DNA from: a virus
DNA: 64,000 nt
Reading direction: 5' to 3' (one strand)
IMG/VR virus record: IMGVR_UViG_3300045988_069050
Span: 1 to 64,000 of that record
Shown here: positions 3,958 to 49,669 of the stretch, piece after piece
Position numbering within the stretch: position 1 is the stretch's first letter
How the letters are laid out: each line of letters begins with the position of its first letter
Position numbers and translations under genes: made by a program
Notes under the pieces: model-generated
The model's input: only the letters and a program-made list of their open reading frames with translations
Told to the model about the DNA's origin: nothing
The model's database searches: none

Positions 3958-4234
3958 TGAGAAGAATTACCGAAATAAACGGTGAGATAATTATGGTAGA
4001 AACTATGATTATCGTAGGAGAGATAGTATTGATTACAGTACAAATAAATGGAGAACTAGTTCGCTATGAAATATTATCTGTTAGACAGTTATGGGAAGGT
4101 CGTTAGGGCCTTCTCAAGCTGGTCTGAGGCTAACAAATTTCGTATAACTAGAAATAGACCAGATTGGAGGATTGTATGACATACATCGTTGTATTTATAA
4201 TATTAATCATCATGTGGAAAATGATTGAAGACGA

Positions 4235-5194
4235 ATGAAAACAGTATTAACCCATACAGGAAAAATCTATGTTGATACAGAACATAGACTAGAGTTCTTA
4301 ACTGTAGGAGACTATGGTAAGGAGAACAACATCAAGGCTGATTTCTTAGGTCTAACTAAGGAAATCAATGGAGTAGAGAATACAGCAGTAGACCTAAGCA
4401 AGAAATGGGTAGCAACTATTTCAACTCAGAAAGGCTGTCCTATGCATTGTAAATTCTGTGATGTTCCCAAGTTTGGATTCTATGGAAATGCTTCTATAGA
4501 AGATATGGATAGACAAATCCGAACTATTATAGAAGGCGAAAGTGTCAGAGAAACAGACAGGTTTAATGTGCACTTTGCTAGAATGGGAGAACCAACATGG
4601 AATGATAATGTATTAGCATTTGGGCTTGCTCTCAGAGGTGTGGTTAAGTCTGCAGGGTTAATAGCTAAAACTGTTCATCCAGTAGTTTCTACGATGCTTC
4701 CGAAAGCAAATAATAAGCTTGGAAACTTCTTACAGGTTTGGTGTAGCATAAAAAATGAGTTCTACAATGGAGAAGCAGGCTTACAGTTTTCAATCAATTC
4801 TACAGACGATGAACAGAGAAACGAGCTGTTTGACTCTAAGAGTTTGTCACTAGCACAAATTTCTCAGTTGGCTAATGAGTTACCAATGCCAGTAGGCAGA
4901 AAGTATACTCTAAATTTTCCAGTAACCTCACAAACTATTCTCGATGCGAAGGAATTGTCAAAGCTATTTGATAGGGAGAAATTTATTGTTAAAATCACTC
5001 CTATACATGAAACAGCTTCTGCTATAGAGAATGGTTTCCAGGTAACTGGATACTCTGATTATGACGTTTATCGTCGCTTTGAACAACCTTTATTGAAAGA
5101 AGGTTGGGATGTTATAGTGTTTGTTCCATCTAAGGAGGAAGATTCTGACCGAATTACTTGTGGGAACGCACTAATCTCTGAAGAAAAGATTTAA
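4235..5194 (+). CDS. radical SAM enzyme (CxxxCxxC: GCPMHCKFCD), RlmN/Cfr-like CKFC signature; function unknown
   Basis: [4Fe-4S] cluster-binding motif CPMHCKFC seen directly in translation; 319 aa. Confidence 0.8.
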   Translation: MKTVLTHTGKIYVDTEHRLEFLTVGDYGKENNIKADFLGLTKEINGVENTAVDLSKKWVATISTQKGCPMHCKFCDVPKFGFYGNASIEDMDRQIRTIIEGESVRETDRFNVHFARMGEPTWNDNVLAFGLALRGVVKSAGLIAKTVHPVVSTMLPKANNKLGNFLQVWCSIKNEFYNGEAGLQFSINSTDDEQRNELFDSKSLSLAQISQLANELPMPVGRKYTLNFPVTSQTILDAKELSKLFDREKFIVKITPIHETASAIENGFQVTGYSDYDVYRRFEQPLLKEGWDVIVFVPSKEEDSDRITCGNALISEEKI

Positions 5195-9089: not shown

Positions 9090-9482
9090 ATGAACGCTTG
9101 GGAAAGCGACTACAAATCACATCAAGGCAATTTAGGGTTAGGCAGGGCTATAGCTTATTATACAACTAATTGTATTCCTGTCCTGATTCCTTTAAATGAT
9201 ACTCAAAAGTATGATATAGCAATAGATAAAGATGGGTTGAAGAGAGTTTCTGTTAAAACTACTCAATGCCTATCAAAGAGTGGCAACTATGAAGTTCTAT
9301 TAAAGAATTGTGGTGGCTCTTCTGGACAATCAAAGATTAGACACTTTGATAATTCTACATGCGATATATTATTTATTGTAGTAGTCAACGGTGATATGTA
9401 TGAGATTCCTTCAAGTGAGATTATAGTTAAAAGTACTCTAACTCTCACGGATAAATGGGACAAATATAAAGTTTCATTGTAA
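9090..9482 (+). CDS. hypothetical protein, possible PD-(D/E)xK nuclease fold (DIAIDKDG...KRVSVKT)
   Basis: Motif pattern only. Confidence 0.5.
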   Translation: MNAWESDYKSHQGNLGLGRAIAYYTTNCIPVLIPLNDTQKYDIAIDKDGLKRVSVKTTQCLSKSGNYEVLLKNCGGSSGQSKIRHFDNSTCDILFIVVVNGDMYEIPSSEIIVKSTLTLTDKWDKYKVSL

Positions 9483-18824: not shown

Positions 18825-18906
18825 TCCGATTTAGCTCAGTATGGTAGAGCGCCCATACCAATAAAGCATTAGTGGGAGGTCAGAGGTTCAAATCCTTTAA
18901 TCGGAA
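18825..18906 (+). tRNA. atypical tRNA-like gene: normal acceptor, D and T arms but 15-nt anticodon loop (accaataaagcatta); identity unclear
   Basis: acceptor tccgatt/aatcgga, D-arm gctc..gagc, T-arm agagg ttcaaat ccttt; anticodon stem cccat/gtggg encloses 15 nt. Confidence 0.4.
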
Positions 18907-18992
18907 CGACGAAACAAGGCTCCACAGCAGTTACAAGTTGTAACTGGTCTTATCTCCGAATAACTAGTCTTACGGGGTGGAGAAGTAGTCAC

Positions 18993-20836: not shown

Positions 20837-20909
20837 GGGCCGTTAGCTCAAATGGCTAGAGCGCTGGTTTTGCACACCGGAAGATAGGGTTCGAGTCCCT
20901 GCGTGTCCA
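20837..20909 (+). tRNA. tRNA-Ala(TGC)-like with poorly paired acceptor stem (possible pseudogene)
   Basis: D-arm, anticodon stem ctggt/accgg loop tttgcac and T-arm are canonical; acceptor pairs only 4 of 7, including a G3:U70-like pair. Confidence 0.35.
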
Positions 20910-21110: not shown

Positions 21111-21407
21111 ATGAGCGTAATACAACAGGTCTACTTAGCTGAATCAGGCAGTTCTATTTACATAAAGGGGATTAAACCTGATAAAGAGAATGAATATTCT
21201 GGTGAGATTACTCTAAACGGTAATCCCACTAGATTAGAGAGAAAAGAACGTTACCATATAAGTAACGGTATGCTTGTTACAGATAGTTATCATATCCCTA
21301 TGGAGTTCATTATTAGCTTCTTGCAGGCTAACGGATGTGTTCAAGAAGGAGAAGATGGCAAGTCGTATGTTGTTTTAAGAGAAGTAGAATTTAAATTGAA
21401 TAACTAA
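21111..21407 (+). CDS. hypothetical protein (98 aa)
   Basis: ORF. Confidence 0.5.
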   Translation: MSVIQQVYLAESGSSIYIKGIKPDKENEYSGEITLNGNPTRLERKERYHISNGMLVTDSYHIPMEFIISFLQANGCVQEGEDGKSYVVLREVEFKLNN

Positions 21408-21988
21408 TGTTATCAGTATTATATAGCGAATATGAGCTGTGGGGTTGTCCTAATTGTGGGTGCGATTCCGTTATAAGTAGTGGAATTTCTGGAGGAGGTC
21501 TAACATCTGGAACTTGTAGACATTGCAAGTTAAAATTTGAAGTTAGAAGCGAAAATCCAATGGGAATAGTCAAATATGGCTGCCATCCAGAAAATCCCTC
21601 AGACCCGAAATCTAAATGGGTTATGGAAAGCGCAATCAGAATTGAACATCCTAGAAAAGGTATTCCTGCATGGAATTGGGAACCAGTTGACGAACGTCCA
21701 GAAGAAGGAGAATATTGGAACTCTCGTGGTCCTGGCTATCCAGATGTTTCTGGCTTTGTAAAGACCAAAGCTGCTGGTGAGCGTATTCTAGCTATGGTGC
21801 ATGAAGTGTTAGGAACTGACAAGTGTAAGACTTATCTAGATTTCAGACCAAGTGAACCAACGTGGATTCAATTCAAATTTCATAAAGACGAGTTTGATAT
21901 AGAGAAACTAGATTCTCTTACTCGTGATAGTGGAATAATTACTAAAGACATAATCAAACAATGTATTTATGGCAAAAGTAGTAAATAG
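21407..21988 (+). CDS. hypothetical protein with N-terminal zinc ribbon (CPNCGC...CRHCK)
   Basis: ORF with Cys pairs. Confidence 0.6.
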   Translation: MLSVLYSEYELWGCPNCGCDSVISSGISGGGLTSGTCRHCKLKFEVRSENPMGIVKYGCHPENPSDPKSKWVMESAIRIEHPRKGIPAWNWEPVDERPEEGEYWNSRGPGYPDVSGFVKTKAAGERILAMVHEVLGTDKCKTYLDFRPSEPTWIQFKFHKDEFDIEKLDSLTRDSGIITKDIIKQCIYGKSSK

Positions 21989-22260: not shown

Positions 22261-22822
22261 GGGCCTACTTGGATTTGACAGGCGATTACAAATTATAAGG
22301 ACGTGTAGAGCGCAATCTCTTTAAACGAAGAAAAAACAATAAATGCTACTTATAGCGAAGTAAGAATGGCAGCCTAAGCTGCTGGCTTGTTGGTAGACAC
22401 TATTAACTAAGTCGGGTTACGGGAGAGACCTAGAAACAGAAGAGGTTGAGTATATTGATATAATGGAGAGCTAGGCTCTAATCCTAGTAATATGCTCTTA
22501 ATCAGAACACTCTAAGAGTTAGTAAGACTGAATCTCCTACGTCATAAAACAGATGGAAGATGTGTTCCGTGAGATGTGACGAATCTCTAAAGTATCATCC
22601 CGTTCTCCAACGTAAATGGAGTGGTGGAACGTTGACTTCGGTCAGCCCTATAGTTTGGTAGCTTGTAGATAAGCATCTAGAGAAATACTTAGTATGGACT
22701 CTTGTAAGACTTATAAAACTACCTAAATGCTAGAACTCCCTAGCTGATATAATAAAAATGAGACGCACGTTATCCTTGTAACGAGGGTTGTTTGGACACG
22801 GGTTCGACTCCCGTTAGGTCCA
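22261..22822 (+). ncRNA. ssrA: tmRNA (ssrA)-like RNA; tag reading frame 22345-22377 encodes ATYSEVRMAA
   Basis: 5' GGGCCTACTTGGATTTGACAGG matches tmRNA 5' consensus GGGGCUGAUUCUGGAUUCGACGGG. 3' GGACACGGGTTCGACTCCCGTTAGGTCCA matches E. coli ssrA 3' GGACGCGGGUUCAACUCCCGCCAGCUCCA. Acceptor 7 bp with G3:U70. A-rich run before resume codon GCT; stop TAA lies in loop of hairpin gcagc-ctaa-gctgc. No ORF of 60 aa or more in about 940 bp. Confidence 0.75.
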
Positions 22823-22828
22823 CATAAT

Positions 22829-23159: not shown

Positions 23160-23834
23160 ATGACTAGATTAGAAAAGTATTTAGTAGCAACTGCTACTGA
23201 GATTATCGAAGCGGAAACAACTGTTTCTCGCTACTTTGTCATTGGAAACGTCAAAGTTAGAGTATCAGACCATTTAAGTAAAATGAGTGATGCAGACTTA
23301 CAAGTGATTATTCCATTGAACGGAGGGACTAAGTATATAGTTACTGTTAAGGATAGTCCTGGAAAATTTCTTGTATGGAATGCAACTCAAATAAAAGACT
23401 TTATTCCTTCATTGCAGATTATTAAGGGCTTGAAGGAAGGAGTACAACTTAAGCCAAAACCTAAAGACTCTGCAGTTCAGAAGATTCAGCTAGCATTAAA
23501 TAATAGTAATACCGATGGAGGTTCGTTAACGTTCGATGGTACTATTATCGAGTCTAGATTGAAAGAAAAGCAACTTACCTCCAAACAGCGGGAAGTTTTC
23601 AGGAGAACTAAATCTACTTGGGATATTTCTCAGATTGGAACATTACCCAGTATGATTAAAGTAGATTTGGGATTGTCAAATGGTTCTGTAAACGAAGATG
23701 TGCAGATATTTCTAACTTGTACATCTTTAACCTACAAAGAAATTCTGAACATTTATAAAATAATAGTTGTTGATAACCATATGGTTCCAACTATTAAACT
23801 GTTGCAAGAAGCTTATAGCTTAATTGTGCAGTAG
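23160..23834 (+). CDS. hypothetical protein (224 aa)
   Basis: ORF. Confidence 0.6.
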   Translation: MTRLEKYLVATATEIIEAETTVSRYFVIGNVKVRVSDHLSKMSDADLQVIIPLNGGTKYIVTVKDSPGKFLVWNATQIKDFIPSLQIIKGLKEGVQLKPKPKDSAVQKIQLALNNSNTDGGSLTFDGTIIESRLKEKQLTSKQREVFRRTKSTWDISQIGTLPSMIKVDLGLSNGSVNEDVQIFLTCTSLTYKEILNIYKIIVVDNHMVPTIKLLQEAYSLIVQ

Positions 23835-24290: not shown

Positions 24291-24716
24291 ATGAAAACGT
24301 TAAATGAGATTTTAGACAATTACAAAGACTATGCCGTAGTTCTCGATGACCGTTTCGGTTCTAGATTAGCAAAGTTTTTAACAGAAGAGCAGTTAGAAAA
24401 AATAGGCTTCAAGTACGATGGTGATGAGCCTTATCCAGAGCCTAAGGAATGGACTAGAGAGAATATCCTAGAGCAACTTAAGTCTGACGTGGAGTTTGGT
24501 TTTGAGAAGGCTCTAGACCAGAGAGGCATTTCAGCTAGCCTAATGTTCTACGTGGTACTAAGGTGGAATCAAGTTCTAGAAGAGGGCTTAGAGAATTATC
24601 CTGAAGAGAATTATGCTATGTATGGGTTGCCTTTGTTTAAGGCTACTGCTGTAAAGTATGGATGGGAGAATCCTATAGGCGACGATAATGGGGACGAAGA
24701 GTTCTACAATGAGTAG
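24291..24716 (+). CDS. hypothetical acidic protein (141 aa)
   Basis: ORF. Confidence 0.55.
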   Translation: MKTLNEILDNYKDYAVVLDDRFGSRLAKFLTEEQLEKIGFKYDGDEPYPEPKEWTRENILEQLKSDVEFGFEKALDQRGISASLMFYVVLRWNQVLEEGLENYPEENYAMYGLPLFKATAVKYGWENPIGDDNGDEEFYNE

Positions 24717-29552: not shown

Positions 29553-30464
29553 ATGAACAGTGTATTTTTTGGAAATGAAGGGTTGACTTCTACGTCAGCA
29601 AACTTCTATGCGAACATCGCACAAGAAATGATTCAAGCAGCACAGGAACGCTTGAATAATGTGAAATTCTTTCAAGTATCTGTAGCCTCTATCGGTGGAG
29701 GAGAAAAGCAGTTAATGACAGTAGGACAAAAGTCCCTTGACTTTATAAAAGATGATTTGGAAAAGGTCGCTGCCATGAATAGTTTTTGTGCTTGGGTACG
29801 AGAAGCTATTAAAGAGAAAGAAGGAATGATTGGCAAAGTATCTGCTACTATGCTTGATGATTGGGCAGAAAGTCAGGGAATAGGACTGCCAGAGCAGCCT
29901 AAGTATCCAGAAGCTCTACCTTCTCCGACTGAAGAGACTATCATAAAGTCGTGGGATATTAACAAGAGAAATAAATTCCTAAGATTAGAGGCGTTTGCTT
30001 CTACCTATGGAAAGTATATTCATCCAAAAGGAGCCTTTAGTAAAGCACGAAAAGAAGTTCATGCAGCTGAGAATTGTCCTATCTATAAGGAAGGCTCTGG
30101 AAGAGATTTAATTCTCTACTACCAAGACCCTACCATCGAAGTAGAAAAAGTGGACAATATGTTCATGTCTCTTCAAGACACCTATCGTTCTTACGAGAAG
30201 GAGTTAAATGCTCTTAAAGCTGAGCTTAAGGAGGAGGTTAATAAACTTTCTAACACTCAAGAACAAGAGTATCGTGAGAAAATGGCTGAATTTAAAGCAA
30301 AATACGACAAATATACCTCCGAATTAGGAGAGTTGAGAAGTCGTTTCAATAGTTGGAAAACTTCTGAAATGGAACGTATTTCCAAACTAAAAATCGCTTT
30401 GCCTAAGAATCTTTTAGATATTTTCGAAGAGATTAGGAGACAAGGCGACTCTTCCTCTAAGTAA
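29553..30464 (+). CDS. hypothetical protein (303 aa)
   Basis: ORF. Confidence 0.7.
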   Translation: MNSVFFGNEGLTSTSANFYANIAQEMIQAAQERLNNVKFFQVSVASIGGGEKQLMTVGQKSLDFIKDDLEKVAAMNSFCAWVREAIKEKEGMIGKVSATMLDDWAESQGIGLPEQPKYPEALPSPTEETIIKSWDINKRNKFLRLEAFASTYGKYIHPKGAFSKARKEVHAAENCPIYKEGSGRDLILYYQDPTIEVEKVDNMFMSLQDTYRSYEKELNALKAELKEEVNKLSNTQEQEYREKMAEFKAKYDKYTSELGELRSRFNSWKTSEMERISKLKIALPKNLLDIFEEIRRQGDSSSK

Positions 30465-30846
30465 TTAGAGGACTTCCGTAGGAAGCTAACATAACATACT
30501 TAACAGGAATAATTATGAACAGTATATTCTTAAATCCGCATGGATTTAATCTTTATTCGCTGGCTACACAAAAATTTACAACCTACTCTCTAATTGAGAG
30601 TCTTTGTCTTAGTCTTTGTTAGTGTAGCTAGGTCTTTGACTACGGCTTCATCTTTGCCTGCGCGTTAGCTTCCTACATAGCTCGTCAACCACGTGTTGAA
30701 GGAGTTACGGAATCCCTTCGGGATTCTAGCCTTTTGCTTCAGTTACAAGTAATCTTTAAACTTGGTGACTATTATCCCAAATTCTCAACAAGATGAAGAG
30801 GGAGGTTGACCAACCTAATAATGGTACAAGCTCTTCGGAGTGATAG

Positions 30847-30898
30847 GAGTGGGGAAAGTATCTGGTGAAGCACAGATACTGGAACCACTCTTTTTTTT
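30847..30898 (+). terminator. nested hairpin (outer gagtgg/ccactc, inner agtatctg/cagatact) followed by T9
   Basis: Inverted repeats and T-run at the end of a 470-bp ORF-free region. Confidence 0.5.
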
Positions 30899-30938
30899 GA
30901 TAGATAAAATGATTATTAACTAATTTAAATTAAGAAAA

Positions 30939-31113
30939 ATGAAGAAAGTACTATTGCTTTTCGGAATGGTTGCACTGATGTCTGCTTGTGCAGGTAATAC
31001 AAAGACTCAGGCTCCAGAAAACGATTCTATCGCAATCGTTAAAGAAGTTGCTGACACAATGAGTGTAGACACTCTAGGTGTGGATAGTCTTGTAATTGAT
31101 AGTATTCAGTAAT
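30939..31113 (+). CDS. small lipoprotein (MKKVLLLFGMVALMSAC...)
   Basis: Lipobox-like signal. Confidence 0.5.
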
Positions 31114-41266: not shown

Positions 41267-42130
41267 ATGACTGTATTAGGAGATAAGCTGAGAGAGGCTT
41301 TGAGCGATAAAGCAAACGACGTTAATAGCTATGTATGGAAAGGACCTAAGGTAAATGGGGTCCAGGAGGAAATTAAATTGGTAGACGCAGGTTATGACCA
41401 GCTGAGACGATTCTACAATCATTGTGAACAAATGTTGTACAACTCTGATACCAAGAATCCGGGTCGTGTAACATTACTCGGAATTGTGTCCGACCAAATA
41501 CAAAGATGTCGTGCAGAGCTTCTTATTAGATGGCTTAGAGCTGAAAAGCAATACACAAACACACGTTGTTTGGAAGACTTGAAAGCTGTTATCAAAAACA
41601 ATAAGGAAGTGTTAACTAATGAGGCTATTAAGGTCTATCCAATTGGAGAGATTCTTAATGGAATCCCTGTAGAGTTTAGAGAAGTACCGGTAAGTTTAGT
41701 TATGGATGCTTGTTTAGATTCCTTGGGATTGTTTGACAACTCTCATTTGACGCTTAACTTCATTGTAAAAATGGGACTGTGGTTTACACAGCAAGAAATG
41801 CAGAAAGACTTGTATCGTAAAGACCCAGTGACAGGTAAAGCTGTTAACAGACTGTTAGTAGTAAGTAAGGAACTTCGTTTGAATCCTTCTATAGCTCTGA
41901 AAATCTGTGATACTGGATTAAGTTATGCTGAGTTTAGATCTATGTGTAGATTGAAACGAGATAAATATGCTAACTTAACTAGTGATCAGCTCAGACTGCT
42001 ATCAAACAAAGTTCTTTATCGCTTCCAAAATCAATGCGAGAACCAGGCTAAACAATGGAAGGATAAGATGGAAGAAATCAAGAAAGTTGCAGAACTTAAA
42101 GGATGGGACATCACTAGGAATATAGATTGA
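41267..42130 (+). CDS. hypothetical protein (287 aa)
   Basis: ORF. Confidence 0.7.
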   Translation: MTVLGDKLREALSDKANDVNSYVWKGPKVNGVQEEIKLVDAGYDQLRRFYNHCEQMLYNSDTKNPGRVTLLGIVSDQIQRCRAELLIRWLRAEKQYTNTRCLEDLKAVIKNNKEVLTNEAIKVYPIGEILNGIPVEFREVPVSLVMDACLDSLGLFDNSHLTLNFIVKMGLWFTQQEMQKDLYRKDPVTGKAVNRLLVVSKELRLNPSIALKICDTGLSYAEFRSMCRLKRDKYANLTSDQLRLLSNKVLYRFQNQCENQAKQWKDKMEEIKKVAELKGWDITRNID

Positions 42131-47360: not shown

Positions 47361-48374
47361 GTGACCATGTTTGATTATACTTTTGAACCAAAAATTACTA
47401 AGGAATTTCTTCTATCTAAAAACAATGAGGAGACTTACATGACTTATTATCTGGGCATCCCAGTTAAGAAAGGATTGTTCAAGTCTCCTTTGCGTAGTGA
47501 CAGTCATGTCACTTGCAGTTTCTTTAGAGGAAAATCTGGAAACTTGTATTTTAAAGACTTTGCTTCTGGAAAATGTCTCACATTCGAAGGAGTAGTTATG
47601 GAAAAGTATAATTGTAACTACCACACTGCTTTAAGGATTATAGCTAAAGACTTTGGATATACGAAAGATTCTTCCGTAAAGAAAGTTGCAGTGAAAATCC
47701 AGCCTAAGTTTGAAGAAGAGAAACAAACTTTTATTCAGATAGAGGCTAAGGATTTTTCAGAACCTGAGTTGAAGTGGTGGGGAAGTTTTGGTATAACTAA
47801 AGACATCCTATATAAGTTCAAAGTATACAGTTGTAGTACTGTATTTTTGAATGGGAACATATATGCACAATCTGCCCAGCATAGTCCTATATATGGCTAC
47901 TATTTTGGAAAGAAAGAGAACATCGAGCAATGGCGAATTTATATGCCAAAACGAAAGGAGTTTAGATTCATAGGAAATGTTTCAACCAAGACTATTCAAG
48001 GCTATAAGCAATTAGCTAAGAGTGGAAAACTAGTTGTTATAACTAAATCTATGAAAGATGTAATGTGTTTATATTCTTTAGGAATACCAGCTATAGCTCC
48101 CAACTCTGAAACTCAGTTTGTTTCTGATAAGATTTTAGAAGAATTAAAGCAGAGATTCAAATACGTTGTGTTGCTATATGATAATGATTTGACTGGAGTA
48201 CGTTTTACTAATAAGATTAGGAAAGAGCATCCAGAACTAATTGTATCAATGATTCCCAGAAGCACAGGAGCTAAGGATATAAGTGATTATTACCATATGT
48301 ATGGAAGAAAAGGTACACAAGAATTTATTACTAATTACATAAAGAAACTTAAGAAGAATGAAAAAGTAGACTAA
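47361..48374 (+). CDS. DnaG-like DNA primase (zinc-binding N-terminus, Toprim domain with LLYDND)
   Basis: Cys/His cluster near the N-terminus; Toprim E...DxD motif. Confidence 0.75.
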   Translation: MTMFDYTFEPKITKEFLLSKNNEETYMTYYLGIPVKKGLFKSPLRSDSHVTCSFFRGKSGNLYFKDFASGKCLTFEGVVMEKYNCNYHTALRIIAKDFGYTKDSSVKKVAVKIQPKFEEEKQTFIQIEAKDFSEPELKWWGSFGITKDILYKFKVYSCSTVFLNGNIYAQSAQHSPIYGYYFGKKENIEQWRIYMPKRKEFRFIGNVSTKTIQGYKQLAKSGKLVVITKSMKDVMCLYSLGIPAIAPNSETQFVSDKILEELKQRFKYVVLLYDNDLTGVRFTNKIRKEHPELIVSMIPRSTGAKDISDYYHMYGRKGTQEFITNYIKKLKKNEKVD

Positions 48375-48564
48375 TACAAGTGTTACAGCCATCTTTAAGG
48401 ACGGTAGTAGAAAAACTTTTGAATCTGTTGAATTAGCCTCTGAAGGAACTGGTTTGGAGATAAACTCAATCAAAGCTAGAGCTAATAAGCCTGGCTCTGG
48501 AGCAAAATCAAAAGACGGAATTACCTTTGAATGGGCAGACCCCGCAGTTAGAAGAAGTAAGTAG

Positions 48565-48948
48565 GCAAAGAAGAGTAAACAAAAAGGCTCTCAGTATGAG
48601 TTAGAAATAATTCACAAACTTAGAGATATAGGATACGAAGGATGTGTGTCTAGCAGAAGTCAAAACAAATTGGCTGATGCTGACAAAATAGACATTGTTG
48701 ACATGAACAATGAACTTCCGGTTAATATCCAAGCTAAATTTACTCAGAATATGCCTAACTATTTTGATATTAGAGATGCTTGCAGTGATAAGTCAAAGCC
48801 GTTCTGTATATGCTGGAAAAAGGCAGGAAAGAATGGAGAGTCAGCTAGAGGGCAAGTTGCTGTAATCCCAATCAGCTTTTTTTATGAGCTACTAGAAATG
48901 TGCAAGAATGGAGGAATGGAAGGTATATCCAGAGTTTCCGACGTATGA
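48565..48948 (+). pseudogene. Hjc-like Holliday-junction resolvase / PD-(D/E)xK nuclease lacking a canonical start codon; preceded in-frame by TAG (48562-48564) and 64 open codons (48370-48561)
   Basis: KGSQYELEIIHKLRDIGYEGCVSSRSQ...DKIDIVD matches the archaeal/phage Hjc N-terminal pattern. No ATG/GTG/TTG between the TAG and the catalytic KGSQYE. Confidence 0.5.
48855..48900 (+). repeat. direct repeat copy A (AGTTGCTGTAATcCCaAT...TTTTTATGAgcTaCTAGAAATG) flanking the HNH gene
   Basis: About 46-bp imperfect direct repeat with 49376-49423; both encode VAVIPI(S/E)(F/Y)FYELL. Confidence 0.7.
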
Positions 48949-49375
48949 AGTGTCTAATAATGGACAAGTACGAAATAGGAAAAGAGGAAATATATTAAAG
49001 CCTCATGAGGATAAGGATGGATATTTAGGAGTATGCCTATGCTTTGAGGGTAGGAAGTACCATAGAAGAATAAATAGGATAGTTGCTATTACTTTTATTC
49101 CTAATCCCGACAATCTGGAGATAGCTGACCATATTGATAAGGATAGAAAGAATAATTGTGTTTCTAATCTTAGATGGGTTGATACTATTGGAAATAATAG
49201 AAATAAAATTTCTAACTCCAAAGTTGATATTTGTGACAAAGATGGGAACATATTGAAGTCTTTTGATTCTATATCTGAGGCAGCAGAATATTATAATGTA
49301 CCAGATGATAAGATGTGCGCAGCGGTAGTAGTTAATAAGAAAATTGGAGGTTATGTTAAATACTCTGAGAAATAA
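48908..49375 (+). mobile_element. freestanding HNH homing endonuclease (NUMOD4-like N-terminus + HNH_3 NLRWV motif)
   Basis: MEEWKVYPEFPTYEVSNNGQVRN ... DHIDKDRKNNCVSNLRWV; bracketed by direct repeats. Confidence 0.8.
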
Positions 49376-49423
49376 AGTTGCTGTAATACCTATAGAATAT
49401 TTTTATGAATTGCTTAGAAAATG
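49376..49423 (+). repeat. direct repeat copy B flanking the HNH gene (carries the ancestral C-terminus ..ELLRK* and the start of the downstream gene)
   Basis: See copy A. Confidence 0.7.
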
Positions 49424-49669
49424 AAAAAGTTAGTAGTTAAAGGTCCGGTTCCTACGATTAAAAATTGTATAGTTAATGACTTTGATGATGAATATGCTCT
49501 TTATTTAAGGACAGCTAAAAAGAATTGGAGAACAATGGAAGCATTCTCTCTTGAGTTTGATTCCACTTTATCTGATTTGAAGAAAAGTCATTTCATCTAC
49601 GTAGATAGAGAAGACCTAGAGCTATTAATAAAGAAGCGATTGAACGTTATTGAAGTAATCGAGTTATGA
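49421..49669 (+). CDS. hypothetical protein (82 aa)
   Basis: ORF. Confidence 0.5.
   Translation: MKKLVVKGPVPTIKNCIVNDFDDEYALYLRTAKKNWRTMEAFSLEFDSTLSDLKKSHFIYVDREDLELLIKKRLNVIEVIEL

Follow-up and report, generated by a model that had tools for sequence, protein, structure and literature searches.

An amber codon conserved near the start of a nuclease gene with an Hjc-like fold in a phage lineage that appears to read UAG as glutamine

A nuclease gene with two in-frame TAG codons

The stretch analysed here, positions 1 to 64,000 of the IMG/VR virus record IMGVR_UViG_3300045988_069050 (the 64 kb window), comprises a block of tRNA genes and one for replication and nucleotide metabolism, with all genes on the plus strand and no virion genes. 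In the replication block the Toprim primase gene (47361-48374, +) is followed by a gene for a nuclease with an Hjc-like fold at 48358-48948 (+), which opens ATG AAA AAG TAG ACT AAT ACA, ends at a TGA (48946-48948), and has 196 sense codons when TAG is read as glutamine (Gln, Q). The same architecture is present in 85 loci. Its ATG at 48358 sits inside the 3' end of the primase gene, with a 17-nt overlap in a different frame. The first-pass annotation, made from the letters alone, had described the gene as lacking a start codon and as opening at 48370 directly after the primase stop. Neither description survives, since the ATG at 48358 had been overlooked and an ATG followed by two to four codons and then TAG is found at all 85 homologous loci, and since the primase stop is a TAA at 48372-48374 in the other frame. 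What bounds the frame at 48370 is a second TAG, at 48367-48369 (+), which is codon 4 of the gene and a candidate "amber gate".

The rest of the frame is as had been annotated. Read directly, the TAG at codon 69 (48562-48564, +) is in frame with AKKSKQKGSQYELEII and is preceded by exactly 64 open codons (codons 5-68, 48370-48561, +), among which a TTG at 48454 is the sole ATG, GTG or TTG. No canonical start lies between this TAG and the putative catalytic glutamate, E81, the earliest being a GTG at 48646 (codon 97), 3' of E81. Codons 5-68 correspond to an N-terminal I-HmuI/NUMOD-like DNA-binding domain, and codons 70-180 (48565-48897, +) to an Hjc-like PD-(D/E)xK nuclease domain with the motif residues E81 (48598-48600), D112 (48691-48693), Q125 (48730-48732) and K127 (48736-48738). 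For the reasons developed below, we conclude that the locus is one intact two-domain nuclease gene, and neither a pseudogene nor a case of unusual initiation.

Conservation of the early TAG among homologues

A protein search returned 287 homologues which, among the matches listed, are mostly about 181 amino acids (aa) long and cover both halves of the open reading frame (ORF), many of them beginning MKKQTNTSV. Under translation table 11 the homologue genes "do not translate to the query", so that TAG must have been taken as Q in the public gene calls. The nucleotide comparisons below use a set of 85 gene copies (80 of the loci from IMG/VR) that comprise 61 distinct sequences with 63-100% aa identity to the window; individual loci are given L numbers where they need to be told apart.

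TAG is present at codon 4, 5 or 6 in all 85 copies (61/61 distinct sequences), after a leader whose length of three to five codons and whose sequence both vary (MKK, MAKK, MRKK, MGKT, MAKKV...). The flanking codons vary as well, with AAA, AAG, ACA or GTA before the TAG and ACT, GCT, CTT, GTA, TTA or CTA after it. MT836281 (L001), a human-gut phage scaffold in GenBank, starts ATG-AAA-AAG-TAG and has CAA at codon 69, a codon found there in L004 and L005 too. In L003, a 133-kb contig with 99.5% identity to the window across 20.5 kb, codon 4 is TAG and codon 69 is CAG. All 85 nuclease genes terminate in TGA or TAA. Across the other 13 Gln-bearing columns CAA (279) and CAG (117) are interchangeable, and there are two sporadic TAG codons (2/398), both at Gln columns: codon 69 of the window and codon 102 of L026, a column at which relatives have CAA (24) or CAG (19).

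The 64 codons between the two TAGs evolve as protein-coding sequence. For codons 5-68 the ratio of nonsynonymous to synonymous substitution rates (dN/dS) is 0.06-0.16, with dS of about 0.8-2.8 except in the closest comparison; when the gene was examined as a possible pseudogene, dN/dS was 0.02-0.16, no frameshift, TAA or TGA was found, and the invariant motif residues were kept. Start codons downstream of the early TAG are not conserved, and across the homologues the position of the first ATG, GTG or TTG ranges between codons 6 and 116. From purifying selection together with the lack of a conserved start we therefore conclude that the N-terminal 68 codons are translated, from the ATG through the TAG. 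This is the only conserved route to codons 5-68, and the nuclease gene requires UAG read-through.

In the loci retrieved, the gene always has the primase gene on one side and an 82-aa ORF on the other and diverges along with its flanks; this constant syntenic position is the behaviour of a core gene, unlike that of a mobile homing endonuclease gene.

Reading of TAG as glutamine in the lineage

Bases 1-40 of the window are an untrimmed Illumina Nextera transposase adapter, CTGCCTGTCTCGTGGGCTCGGAGATGTGTATAAGAGACAG, and all relatives align from base 41 onwards only. The source contig therefore starts at this point; the suppressor tRNA, situated further left in relatives, is cut off. We obtained the left flank from three relatives (L089-L091, 96-98% identical to the left end of the window) by way of the window's first protein (148 aa), which is identical in thousands of assemblies. 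This flank carries a virion block on the opposite strand. In L089 and L091 the terminase large subunit gene, TerL (phrog_6681, E = 8e-63), has 20 in-frame TAGs, the portal gene (phrog_6547) has at least nine, and several genes near them have one to five each, with no in-frame TAA or TGA in any of these; in L090, evidently annotated under the standard code, the same virion genes are broken up into pieces. Further genes with in-frame TAG, which the first-pass annotation had proposed looking for among late genes, are thus found, in relatives, as TAG-rich TerL and portal genes.

Codon usage bears the recoding out: within the virion block 41% of Gln codons are TAG. In diverged relatives, 197 of 252 late-gene TAG sites align with TAG, CAA or CAG, 69 of the 252 being CAA or CAG, and in the opposite direction 69 of 325 late-gene CAA/CAG sites are TAG.

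ARAGORN places a tRNA(CUA) at 9070-9142 in L089, L090 and L091, and in relatives (L089-L091 and L100) a distance of about 575-650 nt separates this gene from window base 1, to its right. Of the 27 tRNAs in the window its closest paralogue is a tRNA-Gln(UUG) at 13676-13748 (+), with 78% identity; the two have nearly the same D and T arms, and both have a U1-A72 pair. The exact tRNA(CUA) sequence recurs in 27 contigs of IMG/VR (96-193 kb), two of which, IMGVR_UViG_3300045988_050009 and _054118, show 99.3% identity to the window across 20.6 kb. The first-pass annotation had found no tRNA with a CTA anticodon, which is correct for the window, where none of the 26 ARAGORN tRNAs has it (0/26) and the one extra tRNA reported by Rfam is a tRNA-Ala(UGC); the suppressor lies about 0.6 kb outside, as seen in the contigs of 99.3% identity. 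One tRNA-like gene in the window (18825-18907), labelled 'tRNA-Tyr(ata)', was considered as a suppressor and rejected, as it has an over-long anticodon loop of 15-17 nt and no CUA.

The lineage appears to read UAG as Gln with its own tRNA(CUA), derived from a tRNA-Gln, and we infer the same for this exact genome.

The replication block itself is nearly devoid of such codons. Its counterpart statistic for the window, 439 CAA/CAG and zero in-frame TAG in 73 ORFs of at least 100 aa, is zero by construction, as these ORFs were delimited at TAG. A scan of the window for upstream extensions through TAG gave a homology-supported gain for the nuclease gene only. Extensions from ATG through TAG at 42103, 37846, 51365, 25628, 62317, 31671, 15104, 18004 and 30515 were rejected, having a normal ATG just downstream or falling in implausible overlapping frames. 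The 73 ORFs end in TAA (47), TGA (23) or TAG (3). The three that end in TAG (21407-21988, 23160-23834 and 24291-24716) meet a TAA or TGA 3, 6 or 9 codons further on, and if TAG is Gln they would gain short C-terminal extensions late in infection.

Two genes of L089 have a TAG exactly at codon 4, namely a 46-aa ORF adjoining tRNA(CUA) at 9148-9288 (-) and a 192-aa late gene at 4097-4675 (-), and on these two cases a TAG at an early position may be a recurrent device in the lineage.

Domains of the nuclease and its resemblance to Hjc

Residues 11-37 weakly match the I-HmuI NUMOD-like domain (Pfam PF22083, E = 0.02), and residues 67-183 match phrog_244, 'Holliday junction resolvase' (E = 3e-10). 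Pfam returned no nuclease-domain match for the protein, and phrog_244 is the family match from which the support for Hjc comes. A profile of the family aligns residues 73-131 with Sulfolobus Hjc (1hh1, E = 0.1) and places E81, D112, Q125 and K127, all four invariant across the family, on Hjc E12, D42, E55 and K57. An AlphaFold2 model of the 181-aa homologue P0001 (97-98% identical) has a mean pLDDT of 86. The protein has a PD-(D/E)xK (restriction-endonuclease-like) fold and a NUMOD-type DNA-binding module.

The Hjc-like call of the first-pass annotation therefore holds at the level of fold and motif and not at that of the curated family, as the protein scores 19 bits against the NCBIfam Hjc model NF040854, where the cut-off is 70. 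Its remark that Q stands where Hjc has E is confirmed, with Q125 aligned to Hjc E55, the second acidic residue; this replacement is a fixed trait of the family and not a lesion. An E-D-Q-K motif of this type is also found in TnsA of Tn7. We conclude that the protein is a PD-(D/E)xK nuclease with an Hjc-like fold, an E-D-Q-K motif and a fused NUMOD-type module, with membership of the Hjc family not demonstrated. It probably cleaves branched DNA and may resolve junctions.

Compared with Hjc and Hje (PDB 1gef, 1hh1, 1ob8) and with phrog_244, the protein differs in having an invariant Gln as the second acidic residue, in its extra N-terminal DNA-binding domain and in a score far under the curated Hjc threshold. 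The I-HmuI/NUMOD modules of phage homing endonucleases (PDB 1u3e) resemble its N-terminal domain, but here the module is joined to PD-(D/E)xK and not to HNH or GIY-YIG. Unlike free-standing homing endonucleases, which are sporadic, as is the HNH ORF nearby, the nuclease gene occupies the same syntenic position in 85/85 loci.

A possible role for the TAG at codon 4

We propose that the UAG near the start keeps the nuclease from being made until late in infection. Early on, under the standard code of the host and before tRNA(CUA) has built up, ribosomes starting at ATG 48358 would stop after Met-Lys-Lys and no nuclease would result; the mRNA itself would probably be co-transcribed with the replication genes, because the nuclease and primase genes overlap or adjoin. 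With tRNA(CUA) in plentiful supply, the two UAGs would be read as Gln to give the full-length nuclease, with a predicted N-terminus of MKKQTNTSVTAIFK or (M)KKQTNTSV.... The codon-4 UAG would in this way confine the nuclease to the late, packaging phase, for example for the resolution of junctions before packaging, and a nuclease for branched DNA would be kept off replicating DNA until needed. The resolvases of T4 and T7 act late, and we offer them as an analogy for late junction resolution.

That the locus is an intact two-domain nuclease gene in which UAG is read as Gln by the lineage's tRNA(CUA), with the codon-4 UAG serving as a translational gate, seems to us very probable. The more specific proposal, that selection keeps the UAG at codon 4-6 as a single-codon timer for the nuclease, released by accumulation of tRNA-Gln(CUA), we favour with much more reserve, as somewhat the better-founded account of why the codon is kept. 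Selection on the stop codon itself is suggested because TAG is strictly retained although synonymous sites are saturated and although TAG, CAA and CAG exchange in late genes. It is from this retention that we infer the timing of expression and the gating role.

The alternative that fares best accepts TAG as Gln and gives the codon-4 TAG no regulatory role, treating it as a frozen synonymous codon or as the product of a constraint at the nucleotide level such as an overlapping signal. We regard this as possible though the less probable explanation. The 61 of 61 sequences are phylogenetically related and not independent, and in the window the junction is compact, with the gene start lying over the end of the primase gene. 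However, many relatives have no overlap between the nuclease start and the primase gene, and the TAG at codon 4-6 is invariant while its neighbours and the leader length (3-5 codons) change. A frozen codon is also difficult to reconcile with the saturation of synonymous sites in the gene (dS ~0.8 to >2), with the free swapping of TAG with CAA and CAG in late genes (69/252), and with the avoidance of TAG in the rest of the gene (2/398 other Gln codons).

Several points weigh against the interpretation that we prefer. The proposed gate and its timing rest on conservation, and conservation of a TAG among related sequences does not amount to independent events. The window has neither tRNA(CUA) nor a late gene, so that recoding is deduced from contigs of 96-99% identity, and three of its large ORFs terminate in TAG. 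The codon-69 TAG is in no other assembly and might be a sequencing error. As to junction-resolving activity, the low score against the curated Hjc model counts against it, as does the Q at Hjc's second catalytic Glu, by which the protein departs from the E...D...E-x-K tetrad.

The codon-69 TAG and the remaining alternatives

The TAG at codon 69 differs from that at codon 4 in being private to the window. In the 60 other distinct sequences this column holds CAG (16) or CAA (24), that is Gln in 40/60, or Thr (20). The CAG allele in an otherwise identical sequence is present in 17 loci and two JGI contigs, and a related contig, OOXP01000004 (L120), also has CAG. The TAG allele had no exact match in IMG/VR, in the JGI metagenome contigs or in the 85 loci; its absence from JGI is weak evidence, as the CAG control gave two matches there, and the IMG/VR control, with 17 loci, is stronger. 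If TAG is Gln, the window protein is the same as that of L006-L010. The comparison points to a single, recent C-to-T change from CAG, synonymous under TAG = Gln and private to this sequence.

The first-pass annotation had left three explanations side by side, namely read-through or suppression of TAG, a two-base change from ATG to TAG that inactivated the gene, and an unusual initiation. The first is borne out by the TAG at codon 4-6 in 61/61 sequences, the CAG or CAA at codon 69, the TAG-rich TerL and portal genes and the tRNA(CUA). The second is refuted by an ancestral CAG or CAA that became TAG by one C-to-T step, and by a protein that extends 68 codons upstream; the third by the lack of conservation of starts 3' of the first TAG (first one anywhere from codon 6 to 116).

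Another explanation for codon 69 is that its true sequence is CAG and that the T read at 48562 arose in sequencing or assembly or reflects a rare variant within the sample. The TAG allele is seen in 0/85 loci and in neither IMG/VR nor JGI, against 17 loci and two JGI contigs for CAG, and the contig end carries untrimmed adapter. We nevertheless think an error unlikely, as the change is synonymous under TAG = Gln and so expected, L026 has an analogous private TAG at Gln codon 102, and CAA/CAG-to-TAG exchange is frequent in late genes. Whether the codon-69 TAG is a genuine neutral variant or an error of sequencing, the main conclusion holds, and read-through at codon 4 would still be needed.

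That the codon-69 TAG is a true nonsense codon, making the gene a pseudogene in this strain that yields a 68-residue DNA-binding fragment or nothing, we consider very improbable. The allele is unique, no start separates it from E81, and suppression is never 100% efficient, so that a second UAG must lower the yield. Functional relatives, however, already read the codon-4 UAG, and the same tRNA reads a second; CAG-to-TAG is a synonymous transition under this code; the gene is under purifying selection and has no other lesions, encoding the L006-L010 protein if TAG is Gln; and its 20-kb neighbourhood is 99.3-99.5% identical to relatives.

Scarcely credible, finally, is a start that avoids read-through altogether, whether internal or non-canonical (TTG 48454, GTG 48646), by re-initiation after the MKK mini-ORF, or by frameshifting from the primase: the TTG at 48454 is indeed present and the gene start is in a +1 relation to the primase end, but the first start varies from codon 6 to 116, with none before 116 (past E81 and D112) in L050 and L055, codons 5-32, which lie 5' of the TTG, are conserved at the protein level, and primases of the L001 type end about 200 nt upstream with another ORF between, so that frameshifting and mini-ORF re-initiation are rejected on comparative grounds.

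Relation to known recoding systems

In crAss-like phages from groups Beta, Delta and Zeta TAG is reassigned to Gln in late genes (Yutin et al. 2021, PMC7886860). The Zeta group has genomes of 145-192 kb with multiple tRNA genes and many homing endonucleases, and reassigns TAG to Gln or TGA to Trp, for the most part in late genes (PMC7886860; PMC12386605). Incorporation of Gln at UAG has been validated by proteomics in other crAss-like phages (Peters et al. 2022, PMC9523058). The lineage described here resembles these code 15 phages in coming from the human gut, in genome size (~185-192 kb), in its many homing endonucleases, in having a large tRNA block by a forward replication block together with a reverse virion block, and in having TAG in TerL and portal, a phage tRNA(CUA) and TAGs that align with Gln. 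It belongs to the human-gut crAss-like phages of ~185-192 kb and, judging from genome size, layout and recoding, probably to a Zeta type. TAG-to-Gln reassignment (code 15) is therefore already known in crAss-like phages, and what this locus adds is a fully conserved candidate amber gate in a nuclease gene of the early block; the published recoded stops are in the late block, whereas here a single replication-block gene has a TAG right after its start.

Preferentially recoded families, such as lysis-cassette genes, have been interpreted as timing devices, and in Agate phages a recoded group I intron endonuclease lies in an early gene (Borges et al., bioRxiv 10.1101/2021.08.26.457843). Our case is similar in that a potentially harmful protein is encoded among or near early genes, where recoded stops should block its synthesis before the code switch. 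It differs in clade and in the stop codon used (TGA-to-Trp in Agate), in concerning a syntenic core nuclease and not an intron-borne homing endonuclease gene, and in that a single codon at position 4-6 is conserved in 61 distinct sequences, in place of a statistical enrichment.

As the evidence for recoding as a means of timing late expression has so far been mostly statistical, the nuclease locus would make a clean test case, with one UAG fixed at codon 4-6 throughout a phage family amid an otherwise TAG-free early block, and with TAG and CAA directly comparable. If the proposal is right, the locus would also report, compactly and naturally, on the switch of genetic code by the phage. In annotation, a gene caller that uses the standard code will give a truncated or start-less nuclease here and miss the fused DNA-binding domain.

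Neighbouring genes and other RNAs

The C-terminus of the window nuclease is 15 residues longer than in most homologues and of different sequence, because an HNH cassette (48888-49424) has inserted in the last codons of the gene. It contains a homing-endonuclease ORF of the NUMOD4 + HNH_3 type (48908-49375, +) and brings along a second, diverged version of the nuclease 3' end (...VAVIPISFFYELLEMCKNGG...). Beyond the ORF, at 49376-49424 (+), is an untranslated relic of the native 3' end (...VAVIPIEYFYELLRK and its stop), identical to the gene end of L003 at 10497-10546. The cassette is missing in L001, L003 and most relatives.

On the other side of the gene, many relatives have a 64-aa ORF between the primase and nuclease genes (1457-1651 in L001). 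The window (48330-48374) and its closest relatives are without it; their primase has a different C-terminus and runs 17 nt into the nuclease gene.

To the right of the window, positions 10500-20492 of L086-L088 encode a Sequestin-domain protein, a sigma-70-like factor, a Tad2-like protein (an anti-defence family), a family A DNA polymerase and an enzyme of the PolyA_pol/CCA-adding type.

Among the tRNA genes, the tRNA-Ala(UGC) at 20837-20909 (Rfam, 39.5 bits) was missed by ARAGORN and brings the window's tRNAs to at least 27, and the tRNA-like gene at 18825-18907, for which ARAGORN gives the tyrosine label, scores 52.9 bits in Rfam. The tRNA block also has a full-model Rfam match to tmRNA at 22261-22825 (63.1 bits; gathering score 47), which ARAGORN did not call; a phage tmRNA in a phage that recodes stop codons could bear on stalled or terminated ribosomes. 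A stretch of 474 nt at 30464-30939 has no standard-code ORF, and its sole TAG-read-through frame looks non-coding; it may be an unannotated RNA or a regulatory region.

At 1514-1685, close to the divergent region where virion and early genes part, there is a strong match to the RAGATH-14 RNA family (182.9 bits; gathering score 149.1). Immediately to the right of that position, within a segment dissimilar to the window, L090 has a gene at 11428-11498 that ARAGORN calls 'tRNA-Stop(tta)', with a tRNA-like gene of undetermined type at the same place in L089 and L091. Some relatives could have here a second suppressor-like tRNA, for ochre codons.

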